Assembly: GCA_027858815.1 (NCBI GenBank)
Contig: JAQIBZ010000214.1
Location: 1 to 47,294, forward strand
Direction of reading: 5' to 3'
Length of the DNA: 47,294 nt
Source: Desulfobacteraceae bacterium
GTDB lineage: Bacteria; Desulfobacterota; Desulfobacteria; Desulfobacterales; Desulfosalsimonadaceae
The position numbers were made by a program, and so were the translations under genes. This document shows, in pieces, positions 21,927 to 41,331 of this stretch; within the stretch, counting starts at the first letter, position 1, and every line of letters starts with the position of its first letter. The notes below the pieces were generated by a model, which saw nothing but the letters and a program-made list of their open reading frames with translations, had not been told where the DNA came from and did not search any database.

Positions 21927-21932
21927 TTAAAT

Positions 21933-26597: not shown

Positions 26598-28123
26598 TTT
26601 TGTCCGACCTCCCATCGCCCTTGCTTCCGCGACCCGATACGGTGCAAAATTCCGGCTTTCTTGAGTTTCTGAATATGCCGTTTGATGGTCGAGGCGCTTA
26701 CCCCCACCTTTTCCGCCAATTGAAGATAATCGCTTTGCGGATCTTTCCGGATGGCAGTTATAAGGTCAGCATGGATTTTTAAAAGGTCATTTATCGGGTC
26801 ACCCTGACCTTTTATGTGACCTTTTACCCTTTGTTTTTCCGCGATATCACCTGTGGCTTGTGGGCTTAAAGGTCTATTTATAAGTTCAAACTGACCTTTT
26901 ACCTGTTGAATGGTGGTTTGCAAATAATCATCCGTGACCTTAAAAATCGGTTCCACTCCCACCGCCTTCAACGCCGGCACAACCTTGGTTCGCACCCCCA
27001 TGCCTCGGGCGTCCACATACCCATAATCCCTCAGCACTTCCACAATGATATGATTCCTGGCCGAACGTTGACCGGCAAGCATTTTATCAATGGTCATGGC
27101 ATTGGGCAGTGCGCCGGGGCTGATAATTTCAAGGCGGTTTTTATATCCGACGATTTCAACATCCACAAATCGGGACCAATCCCGGTGGGCCAGGGCATTA
27201 ACCAATAATTCCCGAAGGGCTTCGTAGGGATAAAACCAGATTTTTTCCCGCCGGAAATTTTCGTCAATGCTGTCGGGTTCCAAGGTCACAAAAGGTTCCA
27301 TTGTTTCCAGGGTTTTTTCGATCAAGCCAGCGTCGATGAGTGTTTTTCCGGCTTTTCCCACCTGAAACCGTCCCACCAAAGGGGCATCTATCACTTTGTC
27401 CAGCCGAGCCTGATATTCTTTGTCCAGCGAGTCAAAAAACATGAGTCTGACGCCGGAATGTTTCAATGTCTGCCGGGGTTTGACGCCAAACAGCACCAGT
27501 CCGGCGATGGTGCAAACCGGTGCATCCGCAACGCTGTCCGTCATAAACCCCAAAGCTTTCAGTCGGTCAATCCAGGCATTTCTTTCACCAGGCACTTCCG
27601 GGTCCCGCAGAATATCTCGCAGATAGTTCTCCAACCGGGCCATATCCAGAGAATCAATGGACGTGCGGTTTACCGGCATAATTTCCGGGTGCACCGCACC
27701 GGAAGCCGCACCAAGCATTAAAAGTTGTTCCCGGGAGGCCGGCCGGGTCACACTGCCGATCCGTACATAGGCTGTTTCCCGGTCATTGGCCCTTACCACA
27801 TAGGGTTTGAAGATTTCGGGGCCGATGGTGATCACGGCCACCCGACGGCCCTCCCCCATGGCGACTTCTTCGTAATAGGGCAGAATCTGCGGATGCACAT
27901 ACCGGCCAAATACCGTATCCGCCACCCATTCGCTTAAGTTCTTGCGAAAAATGCCCGAGATGGTTCCGTCATCTTCCACGCCCAAAAGAATGCGGCCGCC
28001 TTTGAGATTGGCAAGGGCCACAATTTCCCTGGCCAACTGCTCGGGCCGGATGTCATCCCGCTTGAATTCAACGCCGGAATTCTCGCCATTGGCTATCAGG
28101 TCAAAAATGTCTTGTTTTTTCAT
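26594..28123 (-). CDS. AlbA_2 / Schlafen-like divergent-AAA protein with HATPase_c_4-like middle and C-terminal wHTH
   Basis: N-terminus IANGENSGVEFKRDDIRPEQLAREIVALANLKGGRILLGVEDDGTISG (AlbA_2-type). Middle is EALRELLVNALAHRDWS...LEIISPGALP. C-terminus is LQLAEKVGVSASTIKRHIQKLKKAGIL. AGGAGC RBS upstream. Confidence 0.7.
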   Translation of the reverse strand: MKKQDIFDLIANGENSGVEFKRDDIRPEQLAREIVALANLKGGRILLGVEDDGTISGIFRKNLSEWVADTVFGRYVHPQILPYYEEVAMGEGRRVAVITIGPEIFKPYVVRANDRETAYVRIGSVTRPASREQLLMLGAASGAVHPEIMPVNRTSIDSLDMARLENYLRDILRDPEVPGERNAWIDRLKALGFMTDSVADAPVCTIAGLVLFGVKPRQTLKHSGVRLMFFDSLDKEYQARLDKVIDAPLVGRFQVGKAGKTLIDAGLIEKTLETMEPFVTLEPDSIDENFRREKIWFYPYEALRELLVNALAHRDWSRFVDVEIVGYKNRLEIISPGALPNAMTIDKMLAGQRSARNHIIVEVLRDYGYVDARGMGVRTKVVPALKAVGVEPIFKVTDDYLQTTIQQVKGQFELINRPLSPQATGDIAEKQRVKGHIKGQGDPINDLLKIHADLITAIRKDPQSDYLQLAEKVGVSASTIKRHIQKLKKAGILHRIGSRKQGRWEVGQK

Positions 28124-28172
28124 TGAGCTCCTCTTGTCGACGACAAAAGATAGAAGAGAGACGCATAACGAA

Positions 28173-29186
28173 TCATAAGGTCTTCTCCATCATTTCCACT
28201 AATGCCATTTCCAGGCGTTCATCTTCTTCATCCTGCAGGCTGAGATAGAGAGAAAAATGGTCCACGCGATTGTTTTTTACAAACAATGCCGGGTCATACC
28301 GCCACAACTCTATGCGGCAAGTACCTGTGTCTTCAACAGGAATCTGCTCAACCCGGTCCGCGAGCTTTTTCCAGTCACGGCGGCCCAATGCATAGACCGG
28401 TTCATTCGGCGGAACCAGCATACTCAGGTCCGCAAGTGCGATTTCGCCCGCTTTCATCCGCTGATCTGGCGGCAGATGATCCTCCTTTATACGGAGTATT
28501 TTACGCACCGGGGTACGCAAATACGGCAGGGCTTCCTGCCACAAGGTGCGTCCGTCAGTGGGAAAATCAAGCAACCGTTCACGGCCTTCACGGGTTATTT
28601 GACCCAAACCGCTTCCTTCGATCTCATCCAGCGCCCGTGTCATAGACATTCCGGCATAACCCAGTTTGCCGGCCAATTCCTTGGGGGTGGTCGGTGTTTT
28701 TATCCCGCCATTGAGCGCATAAATCAGAACCGCCTGGGTCGCCGGTGTGAACGTTTCCGTTTTAGCCGGTGCCCTTGCTGTTTTTCGGGCTTGCGCAGCA
28801 ACCCCCAATTCCGGCCAATACAACTGTTGTCCGGGTATCACAAAAGGAATATGCCGTTCGATCAAACGGCGACGGGTGTATCCCGGCAACTCCTGAGCAA
28901 TCAGGCAGAAATCATCAAAAGCATCATTTGCCATGATCTGGCGCAGGTGTTTTTCAAATGCGGCGGGACGAAAGTTTTCGATATCTTTGATCATGATTCC
29001 CAGGAAAGCCCGTTTACCAACAGTGAGTTTCCGCAACGCATATTGTTGATTCAAGTAGTGAGGCAATGGTCTGGATACAGCTTTGCCCCAGGTGACAGGC
29101 ATGCCGGCCAGCTTAGTGATGTATTCAATAAATCGATGTGCTAAATTTTCCATGAGATATAATAACTTTTTTTTGTACAATAACAT
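28173..29186 (-). CDS. Hypothetical protein with central winged-helix motif (unassigned family)
   Basis: 326-337 aa with TPKELAGKLGYAGMSMTRALDEIEGSGLG as an HTH-like segment. The start is uncertain (29186 or ATG 29153). The long antisense ORF 28257..29144 has an implausible R/C/Q/F-rich composition. Confidence 0.55.
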   Translation of the reverse strand: MLLYKKKLLYLMENLAHRFIEYITKLAGMPVTWGKAVSRPLPHYLNQQYALRKLTVGKRAFLGIMIKDIENFRPAAFEKHLRQIMANDAFDDFCLIAQELPGYTRRRLIERHIPFVIPGQQLYWPELGVAAQARKTARAPAKTETFTPATQAVLIYALNGGIKTPTTPKELAGKLGYAGMSMTRALDEIEGSGLGQITREGRERLLDFPTDGRTLWQEALPYLRTPVRKILRIKEDHLPPDQRMKAGEIALADLSMLVPPNEPVYALGRRDWKKLADRVEQIPVEDTGTCRIELWRYDPALFVKNNRVDHFSLYLSLQDEEDERLEMALVEMMEKTL

Positions 29187-29215
29187 TTAAAAAGTTACTA
29201 TGCAAAATAAATGTT

Positions 29216-29240
29216 TCTAAGTTGTTAAAAACAACTTAGA
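29216..29240. promoter_or_regulatory. Perfect palindrome TCTAAGTTGTT-AAA-AACAACTTAGA
   Basis: 11-bp arms read directly, about 30-60 nt upstream of the wHTH gene start candidates. Confidence 0.5.
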
Positions 29241-29256
29241 TGGCCGGATTTTAAAT

Positions 29257-29281
29257 AGTTAATTGCGATCGGCAATTAACT
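29257..29281. promoter_or_regulatory. Perfect palindrome AGTTAATTGC-GATCG-GCAATTAACT
   Basis: 10-bp arms read directly, in the same intergenic region. Confidence 0.5.
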
Positions 29282-29305
29282 TAAAGCATAAACATGCAAC
29301 ATCTT

Positions 29306-29633
29306 TTAGAGTTTGAATAAGCGCATGGCCTGATCCACCAGTTTGGTGGTACGGGCGTCAATCCTGGCCTCGTTCCAATCTGTTTCGGAAGCCAAGTCCC
29401 CATTTGGTTTCAGTCCATTCTTATAACCAATCCCCCGGACCGATGCGTTTTTCCGGTGCTTAGTCGCCAAGGGCCAGGAGTTCAGACAACTCGGCCTGCA
29501 GGCCTGGTATCACTGCTTCAAACTGTCAGTCGCGGTCCGGCCAAAGTATGCATGCCGGTGCTACTTGAATTTCCGGGTTATAAATGGCAGCACTCCGGAT
29601 CGCTTCCGTTAATATTTCATTCACCAATGTCAT
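29306..29633 (-). pseudogene. Decayed N-terminal remnant of a second pglZ fused to an unidentifiable C-terminal fragment
   Basis: Minus-strand translation from ATG 29633 gives MTLVNEILTEAIRSAAIYNPEIQVAPACILWPDRD*QFEAVIPGLQAELSELLALGD*APEKRIGP. It aligns with the intact PglZ N-terminus (MRVLDHLLKAVRDAAVFNPEVQSAPACILWPDRDRQWEAIIPYLQNELPELFVLGEYAPDNQKGP). The two in-frame stops fall where R and Y are expected. The rest, in another frame, reads GIGYKNGLKPNGDLASETDWNEARIDARTTKLVDQAMRLFKL* and ends at 29306. Confidence 0.75.
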
Positions 29634-30295
29634 GCCAGAGCCTCAAGGCGATTTAACCAGTCATTGAATAACGGGCATTCGCCGCGCATTTTATCCAAAC
29701 CGATTTCCAGCGCAGCCAGTGAACCATGTATCGGTTTATCATATTCTGAATAAATCCTTATGATGCGTTTGCTCGGGGCCGTTTCAGGGTTATCATTGAT
29801 TTCCTCCGGTGAATCAAATTTTTCCCGTATACCTCTAAAGCGACGTTCCAGCTCGTTTCGGTCGATACCTTGCGCCAATGCGGCCGGGTCACTGAATAAA
29901 AGCGCCTCGAATTCATGCATCTGTATGTAGGGAATAAAGCGGCGCAGAGGATCTTTTGTCAATTTCTCCTTTAAGGCATCAGAAAGCATATGCAGCAGGC
30001 AGTCCGACTTCTCCTGACTGTTGATTTTCTGTTGTGATTCCGTTTTCCCGGGGAAGTTGTTGGGTAGGCCATAGAAATCAAAAAAAGTCGTACAGTAGGC
30101 GTCCGGATCACCTTGTAGCCGGATGCGCAGATCCGTCAGAAGCCGTTCAAATTTAAAATTACCCCCTTTATGCCCGGGTTTTCCGATCAGAGATGGATAA
30201 AGATAGATGTCACGAGAAATAAAATAGTTGGCGAGCACTTGGTGAATGAACATTTCCTCGGTTTGGCCTTCGCAGATCACATGCACCCTAATCAT
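29630..30295 (-). CDS. DUF4276-like protein (predicted Toprim-like partner of the upstream ATPase)
   Basis: Starts MIRVHVICEGQTEEMFIHQVL. ATGA overlap with the ATPase stop (30292-30295) and ATGA overlap of its own stop with the pglZ remnant start. The family name is from memory of this N-terminal motif and the ATPase pairing. Confidence 0.6.
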   Translation of the reverse strand: MIRVHVICEGQTEEMFIHQVLANYFISRDIYLYPSLIGKPGHKGGNFKFERLLTDLRIRLQGDPDAYCTTFFDFYGLPNNFPGKTESQQKINSQEKSDCLLHMLSDALKEKLTKDPLRRFIPYIQMHEFEALLFSDPAALAQGIDRNELERRFRGIREKFDSPEEINDNPETAPSKRIIRIYSEYDKPIHGSLAALEIGLDKMRGECPLFNDWLNRLEALA

Positions 30296-31404
30296 TTGGT
30301 CGGCCTCCCCCCCAAAATGTTCTTTTCCCAAAGTTCACCGACCGAGTATTCCTCCAGCCATGTTTTAAAGTCTTGTTCAGAATATTGCTTGAAGATCGTC
30401 TCTCCTTGTTCCCTCTCAACTATAACAAGGTCATCGATTGAAAATTCATTAACCAAAGGCACGGACTGAGTCGAGACGATCAATTGCATCCGTTTTGAGG
30501 CCGAGCGCAGCAGGCCACCCAATAGGGAAATGGCATATGGATGGAGGCCGAGCTCCGGTTCGTCGATAATAATCGTGGAAGGCGGGTCCGGTTGCAACAA
30601 TGCCGTAACCAGGCAAATAAACCGGATGGAGCCATCTGATAACTGGTTTGGCCAGAATGCATAATCACTGTCTTTTTGCCGCCAGAGAAGCCGGATCTGT
30701 TGTTCTTCTGATTCAAGTGATTGTGGCTTGAGAACAAAGTCATCAAAAAAAGGTATGGCAAGGCGTGTGGTTTTGCGGATCTGCTGGTAGACTTTGGGGT
30801 GTTCCTTATTCAGTCGATATAAAAAGGCAGACAGGTTGGATGCATCTGATCGTAGATATTCATTATCATGAAGCGAGCCAATTCGTTTAACTCCAGCGGT
30901 GTCGCTGGTATCATGGAAATGGTAGACTTTCCAACTGGAAATGGAGCTGTAGCAATAATCCGCCACGCTTCCTTTATTCAATTTTTCGAATTCTTCCTTG
31001 AGTTTTGCTTCCAGGTGTCCGGCACCTAATTTTATCCATTTAGGCCCGTAATGTGGTCCCTTGAAGAATAATTCCTCATTTGCAAAAGAGAACCCGCCGT
31101 CAATCGTAGGTTCAAGCGTGAATCTGTATCCATTCAATGCGAATTCGATGAAAGACTCAATCTTGCTCGTTTCCTTCACCCCAAAGCTGACAATACGGTC
31201 TGACGATCCCTGATTGCGCGTCCAGCTTTGCTGCCGGCCTTCGACCATCTCGCCGAGCATACGAAAATAGGAAACGAAATTGCTCTTACCGGCACCATTG
31301 GCGCCGATCAGCACATTTAAGTTTCCGAGCGTAAATTTTTCAAGGTTCCTGATGGATTTGAAACCTTTGATGGTCAGCCGGTCTATTTCTTTTTTTGTGC
31401 TCAT
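30292..31404 (-). CDS. ABC/SMC-like AAA ATPase (AAA_15/AAA_21-type)
   Basis: Walker A LIGANGAGKSNF, signature-like QLSDGSIRF, Walker B/D-loop TIIIDEPELGLHP. ATGA overlap with the pglX stop. Confidence 0.8.
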   Translation of the reverse strand: MSTKKEIDRLTIKGFKSIRNLEKFTLGNLNVLIGANGAGKSNFVSYFRMLGEMVEGRQQSWTRNQGSSDRIVSFGVKETSKIESFIEFALNGYRFTLEPTIDGGFSFANEELFFKGPHYGPKWIKLGAGHLEAKLKEEFEKLNKGSVADYCYSSISSWKVYHFHDTSDTAGVKRIGSLHDNEYLRSDASNLSAFLYRLNKEHPKVYQQIRKTTRLAIPFFDDFVLKPQSLESEEQQIRLLWRQKDSDYAFWPNQLSDGSIRFICLVTALLQPDPPSTIIIDEPELGLHPYAISLLGGLLRSASKRMQLIVSTQSVPLVNEFSIDDLVIVEREQGETIFKQYSEQDFKTWLEEYSVGELWEKNILGGRPTK

Positions 31405-34400
31405 GATCCCGCCTCCCGTGCGGCGCTTTTTTCAGCCAGCCTTAAATGATGGTCATTGATACGGTCACCTTTGTTGCCGCCATATTGGGGGCCAAGATGA
31501 TACCAAGGAGCGGATTTTACATCCTTGCCCCGGTCTTTTTTCCAGTGGATATTGGGCTTGTCGCGTAAACACCCGGCGCCGCGTTTACCCAAATCGGGAA
31601 CGGACATGAAGGGACGGATATTGAGACGAACACCGTCGTTTAGATCCGGGTTCCAGCCCATGGGTTGTTTTTCGATGGGTTTCCAGCGGACAAAGATATC
31701 ATAGGGAGCTTCTCCTTCGAGAATCAGCTCCAGTTTTTTCTTTAATGATTCAGCCGCAGCCAATTTTTCCTGAGCACCATCAATGCCGTTTGCAATATCC
31801 TGTTTCTGGCGGGTGATCCAATCGCCCAGATAGGTATAGATCAGGGTTTCCAGGTTTTTGTAATCCAGTTTGTGATAATTCACAAGAGCAGCAAACCCGT
31901 CATGCATTCCGTCCCAGATATGCCAGATAAAAGGTCGGTGGTGGAATAGCTTGCAATGCTGAATAAAAAATTTGTCTCGCAGCCAGGTATCCAGGGTTTT
32001 GCCTACATGGTCGCTATTTTTAAGGAGCTGGCCAAGCCAATTTTGAAAAGTGGCAGTGGAAGCGGCATCCTGCCGCTTTTTATCAAGAGGCTGGAAGCCT
32101 CTTCCACTTTCCCACACAGCGGCCAAGAGATTGATCAACCGGTCAGCGGCGGAAGATTCGCCGCGCAATGGCGAAATACAGACAATGCCGTCTTCATCGG
32201 CAAAAGGCAGTAGCTCCCTTGTTTGCTCCACCCAGGCACGGGATTCATCAGAAAGTTCCATAGTGGAAGCGCCATCCTGGCGCTTGTTTTCAAGCGGCTG
32301 GAAGCCGCTTCCACTCTCCAGTTCCGCAGGCCATCGGTAACCAAGGAGGCAAGCAACAGCAACCTGCAAAACAGTAGCATCAGTGCGCAATGTAGAAGCG
32401 ACTTCCAGTCGCTTTTTCTCTTCATCCCAGATCACCGAGCCGCTTGGGTGGCCATGGAAAATCCATTGGGTGGGGTCGTCGGAGTATGGTTTTGGCAGGC
32501 CGTTGGGGTATTTTTCTTCGGCGACCTTGGTCCAGTGGTCGAGGTCGAATGGGACTTTGGTTATTGTTGCAGCCGTTACTTTAAGGGATTGATCGACAGC
32601 GCGAACATTGTCATGAAAATCACTCGATTCAACATATGCCCATATTACTGGAATGGCGCTATTATTCGTTGGGCAAATAGGACATACGTTATCATCAAAA
32701 GCTGAACCTGAATATAAAAATGGCTCTAATTTTTTCATTTTGTTCACAACCACGCCTTTACGATTGAAAACATTTTGACCATGCAACCTACATCCAAGTT
32801 GAGAGTTCAGTTCAACGTCATCTAATGGGACCTTGCAGACTTGCCCACGCCCTGACCAGGGCGATAACCCGTTTGGAGAATTAAGCCAGTAAACATGTGT
32901 ATCAGCGACTTTTGGAAACTCCCAAAAATTCATTAAAAATCTTGGGCAATCTCCGGTAGTGCTTCCTTTACCGTAATCAGCCACATTGGCTAATAAAACT
33001 TCATTTGAAAGATCATCAAACACCACCCTTGCATCTGGATTATCCAATTGTTTGGCCTGTTCCACGCCTTTGATTTCACTTGTCAATAATCCCGTGGCTT
33101 TTTCTTCGGCATTATATGGTTCAGAGACATCCAGGCCGTAAAAGTAACCAGATCTGGGCGACATAGCTACTTCTTCACCCCGACTCAATGAAATCAGAAT
33201 TGCCTTAACCACTTCTCCACTAATTGTCTCAAACGCCCCAGACCCTAATCGTGCAATCAAATGCCAGGTATCGTTTTTAAGTAATTTTTCTCTGAATTTC
33301 TTGTAGCTGGTTAAAAACAGCCAGTTCTGCGGAAGCACAATACTCGTGGAGCCACCCTTTTTAGACAATTCCAGACAACGATCCAGAAACACAGTCGCCA
33401 AATCGTTTTTGCTTTTCGGGTAATGTTTTTCACTAAATTTTCTTAGCGTTTCACCTTGCTTGCCCCTCTTCAGATAAGGCACATTGGTAATCATCCAATA
33501 ATATTTACCAGCCAAAATCTGCGCGGCCTTTGCCAATCCCTGAGCAGTCACGCCGATTTCCCGCTCCTCGAACGCCCGATCTTTTTGCAAAACTGTTTCA
33601 ACAGCCGTGGCCAGTCCATCCCACTGCACCAATTTTGCCACGGCAGTGCGCATGGGATCAATCAAACTGCCAAGCACAGGCGCATATTTAAACTCCTCAT
33701 AAAGGCCGACCAGGGCCAGGCGAAGCTTGGAGTCCCCATTAGCCAATTTTTCCCATTCGGATCGGGGCACACTCACGGACAATCCGGAACATGCCACATT
33801 CATTTCCGGTAATTGACGGTAACCACCAGAGTCAGGATACTTCCATGCCTCGATCGCCAAGGCAAAGGCAGCCAATTCCACACAGCGTTTGTCAATTTCT
33901 AGGCCATGGATATTTTCCCGCAGCACCGCATCCACTGCCTCACGGACGGTCAGGTCTTCGAGTTCTATACGCATGGGCACCAGCATTAAAAAAGCCGCTA
34001 CCAGGAAATGGCCAGACCCACAGCAGGGGTCAAGGGTTTTAAGTTCACTTAAATACTTCGGCCACCCGCCAAATGTGCCGGCAGCTGGTTGCCAAATAGT
34101 GGAAGCGGCATCCTGCCGCTTTTTATCAAGCGACTGGAAGTCGCTTCCACTTCCACTTCTCTTACAAGCAGAGTGCCCCCTGATATACAGCCTTATTTTC
34201 TCCAATTGCGCCGGATTCCGGACAATATGATCGAAAGATTCCTTTTGCCAAAAAACACCGCTTCTTCGTGCTGCCTTATTAATTTCGTTTGCAGTGAATG
34301 ACTTCCATGAATGAAGAATCCCTGAGAGATCATGTCCACCCTTGGGAGTTACCAAGACATGGATATGATTGGGCATTACCACGAAATCATCCAGGTCATA

Positions 34401-35576
34401 ACGATCACCGTCAAAATGTTTTAACGCATTTTCAACGATCGTTTTATATTCAGCGTGTTTGAGCAAACATTCGCCATAACCCTGATCGAGCCATTTTTGG
34501 ATACGGTTGGAAAATTTTTCATAGAACTCTTTTTTTGTTTTTTCATCGTGAGGTTCAGGATGCTGTTTTAGCCACTCGTCTTTTTCAGTTTGCCATGATT
34601 TCAGCTTTTCCTGTGGGAGAGAATCGGAGGTTCGGAAAGTGACAAAGTAGGTAACGCCTTCCTGTCTCCAATGAGGAAGATTTCCTGAAAGGTTGGCTAT
34701 CTCTTCGTCTTTATGGAAATAGTCGATTTCTTTCAAGCGGCTGGAAGCCGCTTCTACTTTCACAAACCGAAGGTATTCCAAAGGCACACCAGGAAGGGAT
34801 GCTTTTTGACGAAGTTCTTCTTCTGTTTGTGCATTTTTCAGATCAGCTTCACTTAAGCGCCTTGCCGCCCACCAGGCCCCCAAAGAATTATCCAAAAGAA
34901 AAGACACCATATAGGGTTCTGTAAAAAGCTGGGTCACCGCCGGGAGTTCCCGGGCGCCGATCTTTACTTCTGATGCGTTGACCTCTTCCTTCTTCTTGGC
35001 CTGCCAGAACTGATATACCCAGCCCAAGGAATCAGAAGCAGTAAAAACATCTACTGATAAATCGGCTATGAGGCGCTCCAACCTTTGCTGGTGTTCCGGC
35101 GGTAGTGTGAGTTGAAACACTGGTGAATCGATCCGGAAAATCTGGGGCAACATGCGCGCGGCATATTTTGCTGCCAGTTCCCACCCATTTTTGGCACCTT
35201 CATCATGGGCCAGATCTTCACAATCCTGAAGGGTAACAGGGACCGGATCATCCGGGTCCGGATACATGAGCAGGTTGTTTTCTGCTAAAAATCGAGCAAA
35301 TAGCATGCGGTGCCAGTGCTCATAAGCCACTTCTTCAATGAGCCTCTCAATCTCTTGAACTTGAGTATCACCGTTGCGATTATCACCCAACTGACGGCCA
35401 TGGGCACGCAATTGAACCCTCAGTTTCCGATCATCTTCAGTAAGATGTGAAAATGGCTTGGCCTCGCCCACGCCAAGTTGATTTAAGGATGCATTGGCCG
35501 CTTCCTCGGCGATGTCCCGGGCGTCCTTGACAGTACGTTCCAGTTTGTTTCGGAGTGCTTTTTCCAGTGGCTGCAT
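31401..35576 (-). CDS. pglX: BREX N6-adenine DNA methyltransferase PglX, 1391 aa, with in-frame RAYT and REP insertions
   Basis: PglX-type N-terminus with motif I LDPCCGSGHFLV and motif IV MITNVPY. GAGG RBS lies 5 nt upstream of ATG 35576. The ORF is uninterrupted despite the insertions listed separately. Confidence 0.85.
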   Translation of the reverse strand: MQPLEKALRNKLERTVKDARDIAEEAANASLNQLGVGEAKPFSHLTEDDRKLRVQLRAHGRQLGDNRNGDTQVQEIERLIEEVAYEHWHRMLFARFLAENNLLMYPDPDDPVPVTLQDCEDLAHDEGAKNGWELAAKYAARMLPQIFRIDSPVFQLTLPPEHQQRLERLIADLSVDVFTASDSLGWVYQFWQAKKKEEVNASEVKIGARELPAVTQLFTEPYMVSFLLDNSLGAWWAARRLSEADLKNAQTEEELRQKASLPGVPLEYLRFVKVEAASSRLKEIDYFHKDEEIANLSGNLPHWRQEGVTYFVTFRTSDSLPQEKLKSWQTEKDEWLKQHPEPHDEKTKKEFYEKFSNRIQKWLDQGYGECLLKHAEYKTIVENALKHFDGDRYDLDDFVVMPNHIHVLVTPKGGHDLSGILHSWKSFTANEINKAARRSGVFWQKESFDHIVRNPAQLEKIRLYIRGHSACKRSGSGSDFQSLDKKRQDAASTIWQPAAGTFGGWPKYLSELKTLDPCCGSGHFLVAAFLMLVPMRIELEDLTVREAVDAVLRENIHGLEIDKRCVELAAFALAIEAWKYPDSGGYRQLPEMNVACSGLSVSVPRSEWEKLANGDSKLRLALVGLYEEFKYAPVLGSLIDPMRTAVAKLVQWDGLATAVETVLQKDRAFEEREIGVTAQGLAKAAQILAGKYYWMITNVPYLKRGKQGETLRKFSEKHYPKSKNDLATVFLDRCLELSKKGGSTSIVLPQNWLFLTSYKKFREKLLKNDTWHLIARLGSGAFETISGEVVKAILISLSRGEEVAMSPRSGYFYGLDVSEPYNAEEKATGLLTSEIKGVEQAKQLDNPDARVVFDDLSNEVLLANVADYGKGSTTGDCPRFLMNFWEFPKVADTHVYWLNSPNGLSPWSGRGQVCKVPLDDVELNSQLGCRLHGQNVFNRKGVVVNKMKKLEPFLYSGSAFDDNVCPICPTNNSAIPVIWAYVESSDFHDNVRAVDQSLKVTAATITKVPFDLDHWTKVAEEKYPNGLPKPYSDDPTQWIFHGHPSGSVIWDEEKKRLEVASTLRTDATVLQVAVACLLGYRWPAELESGSGFQPLENKRQDGASTMELSDESRAWVEQTRELLPFADEDGIVCISPLRGESSAADRLINLLAAVWESGRGFQPLDKKRQDAASTATFQNWLGQLLKNSDHVGKTLDTWLRDKFFIQHCKLFHHRPFIWHIWDGMHDGFAALVNYHKLDYKNLETLIYTYLGDWITRQKQDIANGIDGAQEKLAAAESLKKKLELILEGEAPYDIFVRWKPIEKQPMGWNPDLNDGVRLNIRPFMSVPDLGKRGAGCLRDKPNIHWKKDRGKDVKSAPWYHLGPQYGGNKGDRINDHHLRLAEKSAAREAGS
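32056..32107 (-). repeat. REP copy A (52 nt, two hairpins plus closing stem) inside pglX
   Basis: GTGGAAGCGGCATCCTGCCGCTTTTTATCAAGAGGCTGGAAGCCTCTTCCAC, translated in frame as SGRGFQPLDKKRQDAAST. Confidence 0.85.
32263..32314 (-). repeat. REP copy B inside pglX
   Basis: GTGGAAGCGCCATCCTGGCGCTTGTTTTCAAGCGGCTGGAAGCCGCTTCCAC. Both stems differ from copy A by compensatory changes. Translated as SGSGFQPLENKRQDGAST. Confidence 0.85.
34099..34150 (-). repeat. REP copy C inside pglX, directly downstream (gene sense) of the RAYT domain
   Basis: GTGGAAGCGGCATCCTGCCGCTTTTTATCAAGCGACTGGAAGTCGCTTCCAC, translated as GSDFQSLDKKRQDAAST. Confidence 0.85.
34173..34679 (-). mobile_element. REP-associated tyrosine transposase (RAYT, IS200/IS605-like HUH-Y1) domain read in frame within pglX
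   Basis: LPHWRQEGVTYFVTFRTSDSLP...DDFVVMPNHIHVLVTP (HUH)...SWKSFTANEINK...VFWQKESFDHIVRN...RLYIRGH (candidate catalytic Tyr). No own ATG or RBS is visible. Confidence 0.75.
34731..34757 (-). repeat. Half REP (second hairpin only) upstream (gene sense) of the RAYT domain
   Basis: TTTCAAGCGGCTGGAAGCCGCTTCTAC matches the right half of copy B with 1 difference. It is read in a different frame, as VEAASSRLK. Confidence 0.75.
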
Positions 35577-36038
35577 AACACCTCAGAGTTGCCGGGAAAG
35601 AATCCCGGCCTACGATGACGAATTCTTTTTTGGTAGGTCGGGATTTCATTCCCGACATTGATCTGCATTAAAATTTACGTTTTTATTGCAACATTCATTG
35701 CGCGTGAGCATTAAAATGCGCATTTAATGGCTTTTTAATGATGGATTCACATTAAATGTCACATTAAACCAATTTTAATGTGATCGGGAATGTGAATTCA
35801 CATTCGGTTCATCAAATGGTCCGAAACCATTTTGCGGGCCATTTAAAAAAAATTGGCCCTACATCGGCCCGGGTGCAATTATCGGTGCACTTTCATGGAT
35901 ATTTGCACATTTTAAGAGTTGGTCAAATGGTACAAATCCATTCTTGAACCATTGTTTGATTAAAATGGACCAAAAAATGGCGCAATACCATTGCGGGTAA
36001 TCCGACCCCCTTTCCGGGCGGTTCGCATAACGCAGCTC
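35577..36038 (-). promoter_or_regulatory. 460-nt non-coding region between brxC and pglX, dense in palindromic operator-like sites; probable internal promoter/regulatory region
   Basis: No ORF of 60 aa or more. Three AAATGG-N7-CCATT sites (35814-35832, 35925-35942, 35975-35992). Perfect palindromes at 35759-35783 and 35788-35805 share TCACATT half-sites. Hairpins lie just upstream of the pglX RBS. Confidence 0.6.
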
Positions 36039-39000
36039 CTATTTAATCGCAATCGGTCCCTGATTCAAGGCAGACCTGAGCAGTTGTCCTGTTTCCTTGA
36101 TCCATGCGTCAATATCATCATCTGTTTTAAGGGTTCGCCGGGGAACTTTGACGAATTTAACTTCCGGCTCCATTAAAACGGCGGCGGCTTCAATGACTTT
36201 GTCAAACCGGGAGGACATGGCCGCCACCCGATCAATTAACATAGGCAACGGGAATTTTCGTAATGTGACCAGTACATCATTTGTGGTCTGTACATTTATC
36301 TCCGGTTTTGTTTTTTCCGTCAGCATTTGTTCTGACAGGAGATGATTGCGTTGCTCCGGTTCCAGTTGTTTCCAGTTGTCATCTTCTCTTAACCGGTTCA
36401 TACCGTTTTCGTGATTTTTCTGATATTGCGCGTCCAGATCATTTAGCGCGTCGCGCAGGGTCTGGGTCACATTTAAGATCAAGGGCGACACCGGGTCCGG
36501 ATCGGACAGCAACAGGCGCTGTTCTTCAACTTTGGCCACCTGGGCGGAATAGACGTCCCCATCTTTTAATTCCCGGGCCTGGGTAAGCAGCGCTTTGAGG
36601 GTTTCCCATGCCGGGAGGCGTTTTTCAATGCGGTCTGCCAAATCTTTCCATTGATCAATGGCCCGGAAAAATTCATCGCGCTGGGTATAAATCGCCAGTA
36701 ACTGTTCGTTGCCGGCCAGCAGGCGGATTTCATTTAATGCGGACGTATCCGGCAAAACGGGTTTGGGCGCATCACCCCCGGCACACGATGCCAGATTCAA
36801 CAGTTTATCAATAAATTGCGGGGCCATGATGAGTTCTTCCCCGGATTTGGCCTGGCAGCCGATTTTTTGCATGACTTTACGGATCTGAATGCGCTGGGCC
36901 GTTGTCACGGTGGTCGCCTCAATTTTATACAGGGCTTTTCCCATGGCTTTGCGTTCCAGCTCACGCGGATCAACGGGCTTGCCATGATCGTCCGCGGCGC
37001 GAATCAGGCCGGCCACCAGAAGCACCTGCAGCCCGCCGTCCACCGCATCCCGGGACCACCCAAAGGGCGGGGTTTCAAAGTGCTGACGGAGTTCCGCCCC
37101 TTTTTTCCCGCTGCCGATAGCACCCATAATGGCTTTACACACCGGGTTATTGGAAGCTTCATCGTCAAAACCCACTGCTTTTAAAGCATCTGGTGCACCT
37201 TTCTTAGCATTTGAATAGACTTTGTCCCATCCTTTATGGTCTGATATTTGAAATTGATCATAAAGGCGAATTAAGGCATTTTTTGCAGCTTCAAGGACCA
37301 TTTCTTGTAAGTTGTTTCCAATGATTTCATTGCCACCACCCTGAAAAACACGGGCACCTGAAAACGCTTCTCCCAAAAGTTCATTTATTTTTGCTTCTGC
37401 ACTCTGACGGGTAGTTTTCATTGCAGAACGTGCTTCCTGGCCTTCCGGAGTATTGGGCACCCCTCGAATTTCCAGAGTGGAATGAGCTGCTTTATAAACA
37501 AGCAAATTGTGCCTGAGATCATCCGCAGAACGTCTGGGTATATAGACAAACACCGTTGGCGAGTGATTCCCAGCCTGCCGGGCATCTGCGAGAACTGTAT
37601 TTTCAGGGTCACGCCAACCGTCTCTGATCCAGATATAAATTTTCTGAGTGTGATCACTCGGCAATTGTGCGTCAAAAACCGGAAAAATATCGCGACTGAC
37701 AATGGAAGTGCCCTGAGTAAGGGATAATTTTTTGACTAATATTGAAAATCCTGCACGGATGCGATCAACCCGCTCTGCCTCAATACGATGGGCTGTATTT
37801 GCCAATTGACTGCGTTGGTTTTGAAATTCATCATTCCATGCTGCGCTTTCTTCTGTCTGGATGCGGTATTCATCCCCGACTTTCATTAAAAGTTCACATT
37901 TATCAAGTAAAGCAGGAAGTTTGTTTCGCAGGTTGCTACTGCCTACTGAAAGATCATCCACCATTAAATCGGCAATAGAATCGATGGTTGCCTTGATTCC
38001 GATTTCGTTGTTTTTCCCCCCCAACTTATTGATCAGAAAAATAATCCCACATGCACGGGACGTACATCTTTCATCTGCCGTTCCGCTGACCCATTTCATG
38101 GTCTTTTCATGAATTTTTCGTGGCAGGATACGGGATTGGAGCAACTTATCCGCTGAGTCAAAATATAAATAATCCGCCGGCACGACATTTCCTAAGGGCT
38201 CATCCAGATTGCTCTGGATCACTTTATGGATCATGCTGAGCTGATTACGGAGCTGGCTTTCGGTTCCGGTTTGATCCAGCACCCGCAGCGTGTTTTCCCA
38301 AAAGCGTCGGCGGACCGGAAGAATAGGGTAATCCTTTTCAAAACAGGGAATATCATCCTGATGATGGCCGATGGTTGTGCCTGCTAAATGTCTGGAGATT
38401 TCTCCGAGATTCGTTTCCATTTTCTTTTTTATAAGCGGAATGGCTTCAGCGGTTTTGGCTAAAACGACCTTTCGGATGACAGTGTCCACATCAGTATCAG
38501 ACAATTCAATGCGGACCGTAAAACGGCCTTCAAGTTTTTTCAGATTGCGCGTCCCGGTGACGGCAGTTTGTCCGGTCCCCACAAATAAAAGTTTGCCGCC
38601 GATCTGCTTACAGCATGCTTCCACCACTTCCTGAACGGCATTGGAACGCTCAGGGTCTCCCTCTCCGATATATTGCTGCACTTCATCAAGGGCAATGAGC
38701 GATAGGGGGAACTTTCCATCACGAGTCAAGGCATCCCGAATGCTTTTAATCATTTCATCATTGCTGATATCCGAAACATTTGGATACAGACGGGTCATGA
38801 TTTCAACAGCGCTGTTATCTCGAGAAAATACTTTCGGCTTAACTACGCAAAGGGCTTCATATAAGCCTTCGGCAACATGAAAATTGTCAATTTCGGTCTG
38901 CCAGTTATATCCGTTATTTTCAACATGCTTGCAGATTTCATCATAAATGCCTTCTGATTTAAGCCACATGACAAAACGTGCTACCGGGTATTGTTCCGGC

Positions 39001-39482
39001 AGGCCGACTGATTTAAATATGATTCTTATCAATGCCAAACGCACGCTGCCACTGGCACCGGCACCCAATGTGCCGGATGCAGCATGAAGTCCGCCATGTC
39101 TTTTGCCCTGCGTGGATAGTTCTTTGAGAAGTTCTTTGATCGAATTTGGAAGGGTAGCGATTCCGCGAGCGGACGCACCGTCTTCAAATGTGGTATCTGC
39201 CCAGAGAGCACGGAGCATTTTTACAAGATGAGACTTTCCAGAACCAAAAAACCCGCTTACCCAAACACCCGGCTGTTCCGCCTGATCGATATTGCTCGAA
39301 TAAGTTTGGAGAATATGTGCCAATCCTTTTTCATATTGACCATCACAAACAAAGGTATCGAGTTCGTATCGGAGGACTGATTGGGCCTGGGTGGTCATAT
39401 CATCATTGACGTTTGCCACGCCCTGATTAATCAGTTTCTGGGTGGACGGATCTTTTAGATAAATGGCTCTGTTTTTTATCAT
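36039..39482 (-). CDS. brxC: BREX P-loop ATPase BrxC/PglY
   Basis: 1147 aa with Walker A GFFGSGKSHLVKML near residue 80. Size and position between brxB and pglX fit BrxC. Confidence 0.85.
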   Translation of the reverse strand: MIKNRAIYLKDPSTQKLINQGVANVNDDMTTQAQSVLRYELDTFVCDGQYEKGLAHILQTYSSNIDQAEQPGVWVSGFFGSGKSHLVKMLRALWADTTFEDGASARGIATLPNSIKELLKELSTQGKRHGGLHAASGTLGAGASGSVRLALIRIIFKSVGLPEQYPVARFVMWLKSEGIYDEICKHVENNGYNWQTEIDNFHVAEGLYEALCVVKPKVFSRDNSAVEIMTRLYPNVSDISNDEMIKSIRDALTRDGKFPLSLIALDEVQQYIGEGDPERSNAVQEVVEACCKQIGGKLLFVGTGQTAVTGTRNLKKLEGRFTVRIELSDTDVDTVIRKVVLAKTAEAIPLIKKKMETNLGEISRHLAGTTIGHHQDDIPCFEKDYPILPVRRRFWENTLRVLDQTGTESQLRNQLSMIHKVIQSNLDEPLGNVVPADYLYFDSADKLLQSRILPRKIHEKTMKWVSGTADERCTSRACGIIFLINKLGGKNNEIGIKATIDSIADLMVDDLSVGSSNLRNKLPALLDKCELLMKVGDEYRIQTEESAAWNDEFQNQRSQLANTAHRIEAERVDRIRAGFSILVKKLSLTQGTSIVSRDIFPVFDAQLPSDHTQKIYIWIRDGWRDPENTVLADARQAGNHSPTVFVYIPRRSADDLRHNLLVYKAAHSTLEIRGVPNTPEGQEARSAMKTTRQSAEAKINELLGEAFSGARVFQGGGNEIIGNNLQEMVLEAAKNALIRLYDQFQISDHKGWDKVYSNAKKGAPDALKAVGFDDEASNNPVCKAIMGAIGSGKKGAELRQHFETPPFGWSRDAVDGGLQVLLVAGLIRAADDHGKPVDPRELERKAMGKALYKIEATTVTTAQRIQIRKVMQKIGCQAKSGEELIMAPQFIDKLLNLASCAGGDAPKPVLPDTSALNEIRLLAGNEQLLAIYTQRDEFFRAIDQWKDLADRIEKRLPAWETLKALLTQARELKDGDVYSAQVAKVEEQRLLLSDPDPVSPLILNVTQTLRDALNDLDAQYQKNHENGMNRLREDDNWKQLEPEQRNHLLSEQMLTEKTKPEINVQTTNDVLVTLRKFPLPMLIDRVAAMSSRFDKVIEAAAVLMEPEVKFVKVPRRTLKTDDDIDAWIKETGQLLRSALNQGPIAIK

Positions 39483-39488
39483 TTTTCC

Positions 39489-40040
39489 TTAGTACTCCTT
39501 ATCCGCTGTTATCGGTACGGCCAGATAATTCCAGCCATCATAGCCATCAAGTAATCTGTAATTATTGTTTTCATAGCTGCCTGGAAAAAAGACGACTAAT
39601 TTACCTTCGACCAAAGGGGCCAGTTGATCGACCACGTCTTTGACTTTTAAAAATCCAAAAAGAGACCCAACACCTTTTACAGCAACGACTGTATTGGCAT
39701 CTGCTTTGTTTTCCATTAAAAATTCTTCAAACTGATTTGTAATGAATGCCATATAACCCGGCAGGTGCGTTGAAAGAAGTTCGGGGTTTTTAAAATAACT
39801 TTTTGCATAGGGTTCATTAGAAAGCCAATTTGCAAAGGAATCGGTTAAATCAAAAACATGCCAGTTGTGCCCGGCTGCTTTTGTCACGAGCTCAAATTCT
39901 TCGATTCTTGCCCTGAGTTTTAATTCGTCATTTTCATTATAAACACAGAAAATTACCCGCTGCATCGGTGCCGCATCACTTCTCCAGGGTATGGAGATAA
40001 ATTTGTTATATGACTGTATCAACCGTTTAATTTTGCTCAC
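39489..40040 (-). CDS. brxB: BREX protein BrxB (DUF1788)
   Basis: 183 aa with ISIPWRSDAAPMQRVIFCVYNENDELKLRARIEEFELVTKAAGHNWHVFDLTDSFANWL, the DUF1788 pattern as I remember it. It overlaps the brxA end by 14 nt. Confidence 0.8.
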   Translation of the reverse strand: MSKIKRLIQSYNKFISIPWRSDAAPMQRVIFCVYNENDELKLRARIEEFELVTKAAGHNWHVFDLTDSFANWLSNEPYAKSYFKNPELLSTHLPGYMAFITNQFEEFLMENKADANTVVAVKGVGSLFGFLKVKDVVDQLAPLVEGKLVVFFPGSYENNNYRLLDGYDGWNYLAVPITADKEY

Positions 40041-40815
40041 GTATCCAATCCATTTCCTGAGTGGTTAATAGGCTGGGAAACAACAATTCCATTACATTGC
40101 CGATGCGTTTAAACACGATCCATCCTTTTTGGGATGCGATTTCCGCCAGTTCAATGGTTCGATGTGATGGACAGTCAAGCAGGCGAGTATATTCTGAATT
40201 GAATAAAGATTCACCGCGCAACCCGGAGAGATAACCTAAAAGTAAAGCATAGGCTGCTGCGCCTGGCGTTGGAATCGCCTTTGTGCGTATTTTCTTAACC
40301 TTCCCGGTGAGATGGCCGGATTTGGTAAATGATGAATTGATATTCTGGGCAACAGATTTAAGCGTTGCTTTGCTGAAACGATCAGATTCTTTGTCGTCTA
40401 TGAATTCTTCCAATGCTTCCCGGCGGATTATGTTGCCTTCCGAAAAATTCAAAATAAAAGGCGTACTGGAACTTAAAATAGAATCCCTTGCGTAAGCACA
40501 GAGCAGTGCAATCAAAGGTCGCCCTCCTTTATCCCGTTGCCAGAAAAACCGGAGAACCCGGAACAGGGCAATTGAAGGATCTAATGCATATAAGTCTGCC
40601 AAATGCCGCGCAGTTAATTGCCTTGTTCTGACGGATCTCTTTTTCAGGCAGTTATCGTTTATGATTGAGGAAAAATATTCGTCTTTCGAAGCCGCTGGAT
40701 CGGCAACTGCATCAAAAAGCAGATCCAAGTCTTCCAGCATGATCGTGCGAGATGAGTGCGCGCCTCCCTTTGAGAAGCTAAAACCGAATTTTGATAAAAG
40801 TTCTTCTTTTTTCAC
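40027..40815 (-). CDS. brxA: BREX protein BrxA (DUF1819-like)
   Basis: 262 aa, first gene of the operon directly upstream of brxB. The assignment rests mainly on position and size; sequence recognition is weaker. Confidence 0.65.
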   Translation of the reverse strand: MKKEELLSKFGFSFSKGGAHSSRTIMLEDLDLLFDAVADPAASKDEYFSSIINDNCLKKRSVRTRQLTARHLADLYALDPSIALFRVLRFFWQRDKGGRPLIALLCAYARDSILSSSTPFILNFSEGNIIRREALEEFIDDKESDRFSKATLKSVAQNINSSFTKSGHLTGKVKKIRTKAIPTPGAAAYALLLGYLSGLRGESLFNSEYTRLLDCPSHRTIELAEIASQKGWIVFKRIGNVMELLFPSLLTTQEMDWIREQN

Positions 40816-41187: not shown

Positions 41188-41331
41188 CTTGGGGTCACCC
41201 ATTAAAGGACGGGTCACCCTTGATTTTTGATTATAACAGCCAAGGTTGCTGGGGTCGGACCAAGCCAACTGCAGAATTTTAATGAATAACATCCAAAAAG
41301 CAGGCTTTTTTAACCCTATATCGCACTTTTT
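41188..41331. repeat. Direct repeat, copy 1 (partner at 47171-47294)
   Basis: 41220-41331 equals 47183-47294 with one C/T difference (41272/47235). CTTGGGGTCACC (41188-41199) also matches 47171-47182. Copy 1 has an extra 20 nt that duplicates GGGTCACC. Confidence 0.9.

Follow-up and report, generated by a model that had tools for sequence, protein, structure and literature searches.

A RAYT transposase domain within a BREX pglX gene, and the in-frame REP doublets probably paired with it

Introduction

How do short palindromic repeats come to lie in frame inside a phage-defence gene, and what keeps them there? The question is raised by a stretch of 47,294 nucleotides from a Desulfobacteraceae bacterium (hereafter the window), in which three copies of a 52-nt palindromic element, A, B and C, are found in pglX, the gene for the adenine methyltransferase of a type 1 BREX system. 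REP and REPIN repeats and the RAYT enzymes that accompany them have reportedly been studied by Nunvar (2010), Ton-Hoang (2012) and Messing (2012). Such REP/REPIN-RAYT systems are known as REPtrons (Bertels & Rainey 2011, PMC3116915; Bertels et al. 2017, PMC5581495). Known RAYTs are stand-alone, single-copy genes, and their REPINs are extragenic and spread genome-wide (PMC5581495). An original prediction, made from the sequence of the window, had noticed the three copies and speculated that recombination between them might switch pglX. We analyzed here the repeats, their genomic distribution and the gene that carries them.

Results

pglX occupies positions 31401-35576 of the minus strand as an intact ORF of 1391 codons, which PADLOC recognizes as PglX with 1717 bits. 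PADLOC and Pfam scans place it in a type 1 BREX locus (22204-40815, minus strand) that comprises, besides pglX, brxA (40027-40815), brxB (39489-40040), brxC (36039-39482), HEC-01A/B (29630-31404), a Schlafen-AlbA2/HTH gene (26594-28123), pglZ (24249-26615) and brxL (22204-24252), all on the minus strand; an unknown ORF of the same strand (28173-29186) lies between HEC-01A/B and the Schlafen-AlbA2/HTH gene. The gene has what defines a BREX type 1 PglX, namely the methyltransferase motifs and the placement between brxC and pglZ, and BrxA, BrxB and BrxL are also found by PADLOC. Neither its SAM motif LDPCCGSGHF nor its catalytic TNVPY varies in the PglX alignment. The closest database relative is only 70% identical, and the solved PglX/BrxX structures 8ZEK, 9EWZ and 8C45 are distant matches only, too remote for a residue-level placing of A and B. 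A tblastn search of the window with PglX finds only the gene itself, with no second copy, fragment or silent cassette, and the Pfam and PADLOC scans reveal no invertase or integrase in the BREX locus.

The coordinates and sequences initially given for the three copies were accurate, and their offsets (207 and 1836 nt) are divisible by 3; A, B and C are all read in a single frame of pglX. Copies A (32056-32107) and B (32263-32314) were recognized by pattern match and fold as inverted REP doublets, translated in frame as S1157-T1174 (SGRGFQPLDKKRQDAAST) and S1088-T1105 (SGSGFQPLENKRQDGAST), respectively. Copy C (34099-34150), also an inverted doublet, encodes residues 477-493 (GSDFQSLDKKRQDAAST). 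Each copy consists of two opposed 21-nt REP hairpins, heads outward, separated by a 6-nt spacer, for a total of 52 nt. The unit has a GT(A/G)G head in addition to its 21 nt; its stem, AAGCNNCW/WGNNGCTT, is of 8 bp and is closed by a TCC loop. The units of the window are therefore REPs, i.e. short (20-40 nt) imperfect palindromes with a conserved, unpaired GTAG-like head, and A, B and C, as inverted doublets, have the form of REPINs. The two-hairpin architecture of the original prediction is thus present, but its hairpins 1 and 2 are one and the same REP in opposite orientations, and the closing stem GTGGAAG/CTTCCAC, also present, is an automatic consequence of having two units with GT(A/G)G heads in inverted orientation. 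The stem variants had been read correctly: hairpin 1 of B is GCGCCA/TGGCGC, and hairpin 2 is AGAGGC/GCCTCT in A, AGCGGC/GCCGCT in B and AGCGAC/GTCGCT in C. The second unit of copy B has a compensated GCGCC/GGCGC stem.

A search of the whole window with the degenerate unit GGAAGCNNCWTCCWGNNGCTT, tolerating at most 2 mismatches, returned 8 matches, for 0.01 expected by shuffles, and 8 was reached in 0 of 100 shuffles. All 8 units are inside pglX, and the remaining 43 kb contain none. The claim that no other copy exists in the 47 kb is therefore true of doublets, but it had overlooked two single units in the same gene. S2 (32392-32414, plus strand), with a GTAG head and a GCGAC/GTCGC stem, is read as KRLEVAST at residues 1055-1062, just past the target-recognition region. 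S1 (34735-34757, minus strand), also with a GTAG head, is read as VEAASSRL at residues 274-281 and is inverted with respect to the second unit of copy C. Copies A, B and C fold at -18.4 to -23.3 kcal/mol, with z scores of -5.2 to -8.3 against shuffles. Among all the loci examined, 61 of 64 doublets have their heads outward. A scan of the window with Rfam gave only a tRNA above thresholds, and no known RNA family at the repeats.

Directly downstream of S1 and directly upstream of copy C, in gene direction, pglX encodes a RAYT domain (IS200-like Y1 HUH transposase; 34161-34712, minus strand, approximately residues 289-472). Its presence in the same ORF as the repeats, as originally proposed, is attested by the Pfam Y1_Tnp match (30.8 bits, for a cut-off of 23). 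The HUH motif is H404-I405-H406 and the predicted catalytic tyrosine Y464; neither varies among 25 fused and 122 other sequences, and the predicted catalytic residues of the domain are intact. E. coli TnpAREP, whose structure is solved (PDB 4ER8), matches weakly across the HUH motif. No stop codon is found on either side of the domain, which is internal to the 1391-codon ORF and hence departs from the stand-alone single-copy genes that RAYTs usually are; its stand-alone relatives (2927 matches) are 181-318 aa long and up to 78% identical to it.

The PglX-RAYT architecture is present in 23 of the best 120 PglX homologues. In the window, the domain lies between S1 and copy C, which are inverted REPs, and REPs are found on the RAYT flanks in every fused homologue. 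All main-clade PglX-RAYT homologues have a KRQDAAST-type REP at the position of copy C, and the position of S1 is likewise conserved among PglX-RAYT homologues. This is the classic REPtron layout, a RAYT between inverted REPs, here fused in frame within PglX. In a second RAYT clade (41-47% identical), the domain is at the identical place in PglX but is accompanied by another REP peptide, which indicates that the REP co-varies with the RAYT. RAYT domains were acquired on separate occasions by two PglX clades and by one enzyme of the MmeI family. In one homologue, P0048, the REPs are kept in pglX and the RAYT domain is absent, so that persistence of the REPs does not require the domain in cis.

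Comparison with orthologous pglX genes lacking the inserts, which had been suggested as a check, proved possible at both A and B. P0006 and P0024 have an insert at site A; in P0002, P0003, P0010, P0013 and P0048 this site is empty. Site B is filled, with the same stem variant, in P0002, P0003, P0005 and P0006; same site and same variant make copy B orthologous among these homologues. Empty alleles at site B have 4 residues there, and copies A and B are both stop-free, for a net gain of 16-17 codons. S2 also has an orthologue with the same stem variant, in P0003, P0005 and P0048. Independent assemblies (NCBI, JGI, ENA) have the same sites filled. P0010 is located on a 2.9-Mb Syntrophobacteraceae contig.

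In an AF2 model of the C-terminal 552 residues, which is poor overall (pLDDT 66, pTM 0.41) and has further low-confidence segments elsewhere, residues 1087-1106 (B) and 1160-1169 (A) have pLDDT below 50. A, B and S2 coincide with disordered segments of the model, and the regions of A and B are devoid of helices and strands, which weakly suggests that these two copies may be placed in surface loops. The interval between B and A encodes invariant residues, from D1127 to E1140.

Which is conserved, the peptide or the hairpin? In eight pglX genes, all 26 KRQDAAST-type peptides are encoded by perfect hairpins of at least 8 bp, as are 8 of 10 VEAASSR-like peptides (at least 8 bp), whereas only 0.7-1% of synonymous recodings attain even 7 bp (0.7% for KRQDAAST-like peptides). 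No PglX homologue was found to have such a peptide without the palindrome, each one in the eight genes being hairpin-encoded. This synonymous-recoding test leads us to reject selection at the peptide level. Codon identity at identical residues points the same way, with 87% for REP codons, 52% for codons 1-5 positions off and 42-47% farther away, although the REP codons were here chosen by DNA pattern, an ascertainment bias of which the recoding test is free. We also reject the idea that REP identity stems from recent recombination tracts: codon identity is at background within 1-5 codons, and orthologues share site-specific stem variants. Regarding the structure itself, a model with two hairpins per 52-mer gives 98.2% paired positions and 5 compensated pairs, matched by 0 of 500 shuffles, whereas a single 23-bp hairpin was discarded, being only 84.5% paired and broken at the variable positions. 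By these sequence comparisons, the conserved thing is the DNA hairpin of the REPs and not their peptide. The initial reading of the stem covariation as selection on nucleic-acid structure is therefore upheld, compensatory changes and recoding test being in agreement. Moreover, since orthologous hairpins are kept while adjacent synonymous sites are saturated, the copies appear to be maintained in place.

We then compared pglX genes with their surroundings. Seven pglX genes (28.8 kb) contain approximately 55 REP units, versus 6 in 162 kb of flanks, a density some 50-fold higher, and all 6 flank units lie within the BREX operon. An unbiased metagenome scan with the exact pattern of the 6-nt-spacer doublet yielded 6 stretches, with the doublet inside pglX in 6 of 6. 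Both results bear out the specific link to pglX. The opposite possibility, an abundant element distributed at random, applies to the 21-nt REP, which is dispersed in many genomes and other phyla, but not to the 52-nt doublet, found only in pglX by the unbiased scan. Genome stretches with the 21-nt unit number more than 120 and come from many phyla; the RAYTs that accompany this REP family are as a rule stand-alone. Among the matches listed for the genome collection, an arbitrary sample as far as enrichment is concerned, the free stem positions are complementary in 129 of 143 (approximately 6% expected), and at least 4 stem variants are present. Essentially all occurrences of the 6-nt-spacer doublet subfamily are in pglX or BREX loci. 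Extragenic genome-wide dispersal in tens to hundreds of copies, the habit of known REPINs, is seen neither in the window (one 47-kb contig) nor in six homologous loci.

In-frame REPs also occur inside one HsdS and one HsdM gene. Elsewhere the same REP DNA is translated in other frames, as VEAASSRL, AAGSRFH, WKRLPAA or SGWKPLP. Within the gene, units point both ways; they are also found between genes and, in other genomes, on one or the other strand. Approximately 17 IMG/VR contigs carry the REP family, none of them related to the window, BREX or RAYT.

Discussion

Copies A and B are, in our judgement, probably non-autonomous REPIN-type elements of the REP family paired with the RAYT domain in pglX. 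The explanation that best fits the sequence comparisons, and which we consider likely, combines REPIN doublets and an in-ORF RAYT with copying in cis, the hairpins being maintained as putative RAYT sites. The RAYT domain, encoded approximately 2 kb upstream in the same frame, would bind single-stranded REP hairpins, cut beside the GT(A/G)G head, and would have copied doublets to nearby sites. It would leave the ribosome with approximately 900 codons of the same mRNA still untranslated and the transcript still attached to the gene. Such early emergence would make the RAYT act mainly in cis, which would in turn explain the pile-up of copies within pglX and its operon; we infer cis action from this distribution. 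Selection for a working PglX would then let only in-frame, stop-free copies in permissive loops survive, and those would be retained in place, most simply as putative RAYT binding sites. In-place conservation of orthologous copies is unlike a purely selfish, decaying insertion, and hints at a further function.

One such function would be rearrangement. REPs might act as joints between PglX modules (N-domain, RAYT, methyltransferase, target-recognition region, C-domain), exchange or deletion of which, RAYT-catalysed or homology-driven, would diversify specificity or turn BREX on and off. RAYT and intragenic REPs would then form a domesticated, cis-acting module of BREX and type IIL methyltransferases that swaps or deletes target-recognition modules. 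We regard this as unlikely, even if several observations go in its direction. REP sites are found repeatedly at domain boundaries in homologues, and orthologous REPs are kept in place; the DNA of P0003 and P0005 is identical save for two blocks (nt 2311-2400 and 2521-3190) that sit between REP clusters (nt 2184-2230, 2418-2496 and 3269-3291), and these two genes together with P0048 have a common backbone with three different recognition regions. The independent RAYT captures in two PglX clades and one MmeI-family enzyme, and the REPs in HsdS and HsdM genes, fit as well. However, domain linkers are in any case the expected place both for insertions that are tolerated and for recombination joints that are viable, and the P0003/P0005 breakpoints lie 15-90 nt from REPs, none within. 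In the window, A and B bracket a conserved segment rich in invariant residues rather than a variable one, no REP is present upstream of the recognition region of pglX, and no silent cassette is found. The original idea that deletions between the three copies act as a switch, of the on/off or of the specificity kind, is not supported: deletion from C to A or from C to B would take out the methyltransferase and the target-recognition region, no deletion or other structural variant was seen, and deletion between direct repeats would be irreversible. Specificity shufflons depend on repeats in inverted orientation and on a silent, partial copy of the gene, in most cases with a recombinase close by, whereas the repeats are here direct, and neither silent copy or cassette nor invertase is present at the pglX locus of the window. 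Programmed inversions, or shufflons, in specificity genes including PglX and hsdS are described by Milman et al. (2023, PMC9881135); the likeness lies in repeat-bounded specificity change, the role speculated for the pglX repeats.

The hairpins might alternatively work in the mRNA, by pausing ribosomes at domain boundaries, stabilizing the message or serving as autoregulatory binding sites of PglX-RAYT. They are indeed transcribed, positioned at domain boundaries and conserved in place, and a few G-T combinations pair only as G-U on the sense strand. Such pairs are nevertheless rare (4 of 280 cells), the exact 21-nt sequence is conserved including loop and head, as fits recognition by a protein, units are also met in both orientations, between genes and, in other genomes, on one strand or the other, and Rfam gives no match, all of which makes this reading quite improbable. 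Still less credit can be given to a function of the (S/G)GFQPL..KRQDAAST segments as selected linkers or motifs with incidental palindromes. That these peptides recur at several sites in many homologues would suit it, but the 26 KRQDAAST-like peptides all use the sole codon set that forms a hairpin of at least 8 bp, other frames of this DNA are translated elsewhere, and the segments fall in low-confidence AF2 regions lacking helices and strands. As for chance similarity or an assembly artefact, short repeats can cause misassembly, of which homologue P0122 may be a case; the count of 8 units for 0.01 expected, the intact ORF and the same sites filled in independent NCBI, JGI and ENA assemblies reduce this to a practically negligible probability.

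How does the doublet and in-ORF RAYT pair, our preferred explanation, compare with known systems? As in REPtrons, short hairpins with GTAG-like heads form inverted doublets, a Y1 HUH enzyme lies between its REPs, subfamilies are set by compensated stem variants, and the REP sequence tracks the RAYT clade. Unlike in REPtrons, the RAYT is here an in-frame internal domain of a defence methyltransferase, and the doublets are intragenic and in frame, their subfamily being limited to pglX and its operon. TnpA of IS200/IS605 elements acts on single strands by 'peel and paste' and recognizes sub-terminal hairpins in single-stranded DNA; what moves in their case is the whole element, from left end to right end, including its own gene. 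The RAYT domain of PglX belongs to the same HUH-Y1 fold family, but it forms part of a host ORF, and multiplication appears to have concerned the small hairpin doublets alone. Rickettsia palindromic elements (RPEs), reportedly described in protein-coding genes by Ogata et al. in 2000, are palindromic, in-frame insertions tolerated in surface regions of proteins, and to our knowledge have no dedicated transposase. The pglX repeats resemble them in being palindromic and inserted in frame, whereas RPEs are longer, CGTC-tagged and spread over many genes.

RPEs are mentioned by Di Nocera et al. (2013, PMC3733652), whose subject is GTAG-tagged intragenic REPs of Opitutus terrae and other species. 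There, REP singles and dimers are read in frame in known proteins, adding 7-50 residues, GTGG heads are documented for some families, an N-6 DNA methylase is among the listed targets, and neutral placement in linkers is proposed (PMC3733652). The pglX repeats share with them the in-frame singles and dimers and the possible GTGG heads. The Opitutus-type REPs differ in being dispersed among many genes that are unrelated to each other, in genomes rich in REPs, and in having a separate RAYT. The peptides KRQDAAST, GFQPL and EAASSR are absent from the tables of that study, which reports no gene-specific subfamily and no in-place conservation of intragenic REPs (PMC3733652).

A literature search on PglX with RAYT or REP retrieved nothing relevant, and we could not find a description of pglX with an in-frame RAYT and intragenic in-frame REPs. 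In the textbook picture, repeats are extragenic and depend on one RAYT gene, which stands alone and is inherited vertically; here the enzyme is an internal domain encoded by a phage-defence gene that moves horizontally, and nearly all of its repeats are found within pglX, in frame. This arrangement is a natural test case for cis action of RAYTs, and it demonstrates that coding DNA can hold selected DNA hairpins over long divergence. BREX and MmeI-type enzymes might moreover put a HUH nuclease domain to use in self-rearrangement, regulation or defence. A rearrangement module, if true, would be a previously unrecognized route for defence systems to diversify their specificity, and would account for three independent RAYT captures in this methyltransferase superfamily. 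On a practical side, annotation is affected: PglX proteins of this RAYT architecture are labelled 'transposase' in public records.

REP doublets within pglX

The three 52-nt copies of the original prediction, A (32056-32107), B (32263-32314) and C (34099-34150), were found at the positions and with the sequences proposed. Offset by 207 and 1836 nt, they share one reading frame of a single ORF of 1391 codons (minus strand, 31401-35576), in which they encode the peptides SGRGFQPLDKKRQDAAST, SGSGFQPLENKRQDGAST and GSDFQSLDKKRQDAAST, respectively. Each copy had been described as two distinct hairpins within a closing stem. Two hairpins are indeed present, but they are the same 21-nt element in opposite orientations, a REP with an 8-bp stem (AAGCNNCW/WGNNGCTT), a TCC loop and a preceding unpaired-type head, GT(A/G)G. 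The 52-mer is a REPIN-like doublet: two inverted REPs, their heads pointing outward, separated by a 6-nt spacer. The closing stem arises automatically from this arrangement.

A degenerate search for the unit GGAAGCNNCWTCCWGNNGCTT gave 8 matches in the window, for 0.01 expected from dinucleotide shuffles. A, B and C account for six of these, two each; the other two are single REPs, S2 (32392-32414) and S1 (34735-34757), overlooked when it was stated that no other copy exists. That statement holds for the rest of the 47 kb: all 8 units lie within the 31401-35576 ORF, and this search found none in the other 43 kb, all intergenic regions included. A, B and C fold far better than shuffled sequences (z -5.2 to -8.3). 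Pairing models were compared on an alignment of 16 doublets from eight pglX-type loci. With two separate hairpins, 98.2% of positions were paired and five pairs were changed on both sides, which none of 500 shuffles equalled. The compensatory stem changes are real; several are common to orthologous copies, and independent events are therefore fewer than sequences. A single long hairpin per 52-mer was rejected (only 84.5% paired, with breaks exactly at the variable positions).

A RAYT domain fused in frame

The host ORF is pglX, which belongs to a complete BREX locus of type 1 (with brxA, brxB, brxC, pglZ and brxL) that also contains a HEC-01 pair and two other genes. Between its N-terminal and methyltransferase domains, PglX contains an in-frame Y1_Tnp domain (IS200-like, RAYT; 30.8 bits for a cut-off of 23), with a weak match to E. 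coli TnpAREP (4ER8) spanning the HUH motif. Residues H404, H406 and Y464 are invariant among 25 fused and 122 other sequences. In gene direction, the order is S1, RAYT, C, methyltransferase, recognition region, S2, B and A. REPs of opposite orientation on its two sides give the RAYT the layout of a REPtron (a RAYT flanked by REPs), here fused into a host protein.

The RAYT domain is present in 23 of the best 120 PglX homologues (54-70% overall identity), the named records being MAGs labelled Deltaproteobacteria, Desulfobacterales, Desulfoplanes or Syntrophobacteraceae, and some records call the protein a "transposase". In the alignment, all 23 have the RAYT flanked by REP-derived peptides (KRQDAAST, VEAASSR, SGFQPL), which also occur at other PglX sites, in a set varying among homologues. 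The insert at site B, always with the GCGCC/GGCGC stem variant, is present in proteins P0001, P0002, P0003, P0005 and P0006 and missing from P0010, P0013 and P0048 (4 residues versus 20); P0001, P0006 and P0024 have site A occupied, and five others lack an insert there. A neighbour-joining tree groups the main fused RAYTs in a single clade, whose "solo" members are mostly fragments still starting with PglX residues. The RAYTs at this PglX position in P0009, P0014, P0046, P0051 and P0094 belong to a second, distant clade (41-47% identical) and are flanked by a different repeat peptide (PDQDGLAT/VT or VTRASSSG); the repeat thus co-varies with the enzyme. The second-clade peptide recurs at sites B and A also. 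A PSPSGRGxGGEG-like peptide is found at several of the same sites in P0020 (site B included), P0012, P0118 and P0007, so permissive PglX sites can house inserts of different repeat families. DUF559 together with PF18741 is found in other PglX homologues.

Association of the REPs with pglX

It had been argued that an abundant, randomly distributed element would have no specific link to pglX. The 21-nt unit is not pglX-specific: an exact-pattern scan of species-representative genomes found it in at least 120 stretches, those among the matches listed coming from Verrucomicrobia, Cloacimonadota, Acidobacteria, Planctomycetes, Hydrogenedentes and others. Among these matches, the free stem positions were complementary in 129 of 143 units, and several MAGs had many dispersed copies. 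Stand-alone RAYTs are abundant as well (181-318 aa, identity up to 78%). The link to pglX is nevertheless strong. Across seven pglX loci, about 55 units fell in 28.8 kb of pglX versus six in 162 kb of flanks, and all six were within the BREX operon, one doublet being in frame in pglZ. The locus of P0013, a relative without RAYT or REPs, had no units in 17.6 kb. The search suggested for the 52-mer with stem covariation, run on a metagenome collection, returned six stretches, every one inside pglX, including lineages only 42-44% identical over the matched ~600 residues.

The pglZ doublet (L124:18008-18059, VEAASSRL...) belongs to the P0006 locus; further doublets were seen in L121, between brxB and brxC, and in L123, upstream of pglZ. 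Among the arbitrary genome matches listed, the restriction-type genes with REPs were four pglX, an MmeI-family enzyme, an HsdM and an HsdS. Elsewhere among these matches, intragenic REPs are placed between the domains annotated in housekeeping proteins (E2 acyltransferase, HypF) or, in a PabB-like fusion, within a matched domain, its aminotransferase part. The MmeI-family enzyme (1552 codons, L048:79-4734, Opitutales MAG JAFIGE010000025.1) has a Y1_Tnp in frame inside its methyltransferase part; of its three in-frame REPs, one follows the RAYT and two form a doublet behind the recognition domain. As this RAYT clusters with stand-alone ones, the fusion is independent. One in-frame REP each was seen in an Akkermansia HsdM-like ORF (L007:731-1786, where the N6_Mtase match covers just the final third of the profile) and a Prosthecobacter HsdS ORF (L073:4002-5453). 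In Cloacimonadota MAGs L039, L058 and L090, GA/TC stem-variant units form tandem arrays at regular 60-75 nt spacing, that of L058 adjoining a stand-alone RAYT. The REP family also occurs on about 17 viral-classified IMG/VR contigs (L135-L159; up to ~10 copies per contig, 32 of 38 matches palindromic), none related to the window, BREX or RAYT.

Conservation of the hairpins in place

KRQDAAST-like peptides were chosen by protein pattern alone in eight pglX genes. All 26 are encoded by a perfect hairpin of at least 8 bp, whereas only 0.7% of synonymous recodings reach 7 bp; the REP interpretation thus survives a search for such peptides lacking palindromes. At aligned identical residues, codon identity was 87% in REPs, 52% at 1-5 codons away and 42-47% farther off. 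This abrupt drop, together with the retention of site-specific stem variants, rules out recent recombination tracts or homogenisation as the source of REP identity. By these codon comparisons, orthologous hairpins have been retained in place, with adjacent synonymous sites saturated. Such conservation suggests that the hairpins are still in use, most simply as putative RAYT binding sites. The RAYT domain would recognise them in single-stranded DNA and may have copied doublets locally, probably in cis, since it is made within a long protein while the transcript remains tethered to its gene. Only in-frame, stop-free copies in permissive regions would survive selection for PglX function. In an AF2 model of the C-terminal 552 residues, poor overall (pLDDT 66, pTM 0.41), S2, B and A map to the segments with pLDDT <50 (aa 1055-1067, 1087-1106 and 1160-1169, respectively).

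Deletions between A, B and C had also been suggested as a possible on/off or specificity switch. This is not supported: the A-B segment is rich in invariant residues, and a C-to-A or C-to-B deletion would remove the catalytic and recognition parts. No second pglX fragment was found in the window. More broadly, REP-associated rearrangement might exchange PglX modules, including recognition regions, and the DNA of P0003 and P0005 is identical save for two blocks, both situated between REP clusters; with P0048, they have a common backbone and three different recognition regions. However, the P0003/P0005 breakpoints are 15-90 nt away from REPs, and domain linkers are expected to draw both tolerated insertions and viable crossovers, so we regard such exchange as improbable. 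In P0122, on a 2.1-kb contig, the first ~13 PglX residues run straight into a degenerate REP plus the S1 REP and the RAYT, reflecting either REP-bounded loss of the N-terminal domain or repeat-induced misassembly.

Comparison with known systems and genomic context

Rickettsia RPEs are an older analogue of in-frame intragenic REPs. In Opitutus terrae, GTAG-tagged REP dimers similarly lie in frame within many genes, one of them for an N-6 DNA methylase, and were proposed to be placed neutrally in linkers (Di Nocera et al. 2013, PMC3733652). RAYTs have been described as single-copy stand-alone genes spreading REPINs through extragenic DNA (PMC5581495). The system of the window belongs with the REP/RAYT kind, minus these two features, as its RAYT is internal to the pglX ORF and all 8 units are intragenic. 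In the literature searched, no in-frame fusion of a RAYT into PglX or an MmeI-type enzyme was reported, nor a REPIN subfamily confined to one gene, nor intragenic REPs conserved in place.

The interval from pglX to pglZ (26594-31404) holds four further genes: the HEC-01A/B pair (AAA_21 ATPase and DUF4276), a 337-aa ORF without Pfam or PADLOC match (28173-29186) and a Schlafen-AlbA2/HATPase_c_4/HTH gene. Like cargo lies between pglX and pglZ in homologous loci L121, L123, L124, L126 and L133, and upstream of pglX in L125. The BREX island, starting with the brxL end at 22204, adjoins a tRNA-Pro(GGG) gene (21849-21925) directly followed by a (TCAG)n microsatellite of ~14 units (21924-21987); no integrase was seen in the locus. 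A 114-nt direct repeat, 99% identical, is present at 41218-41331 and 47181-47294 (copies 5963 nt apart), and the contig terminates with the last base of the second copy. Between the repeats lie two methyltransferase-like genes, a PfkB kinase, a SAM synthetase and a sigma-54 activator.
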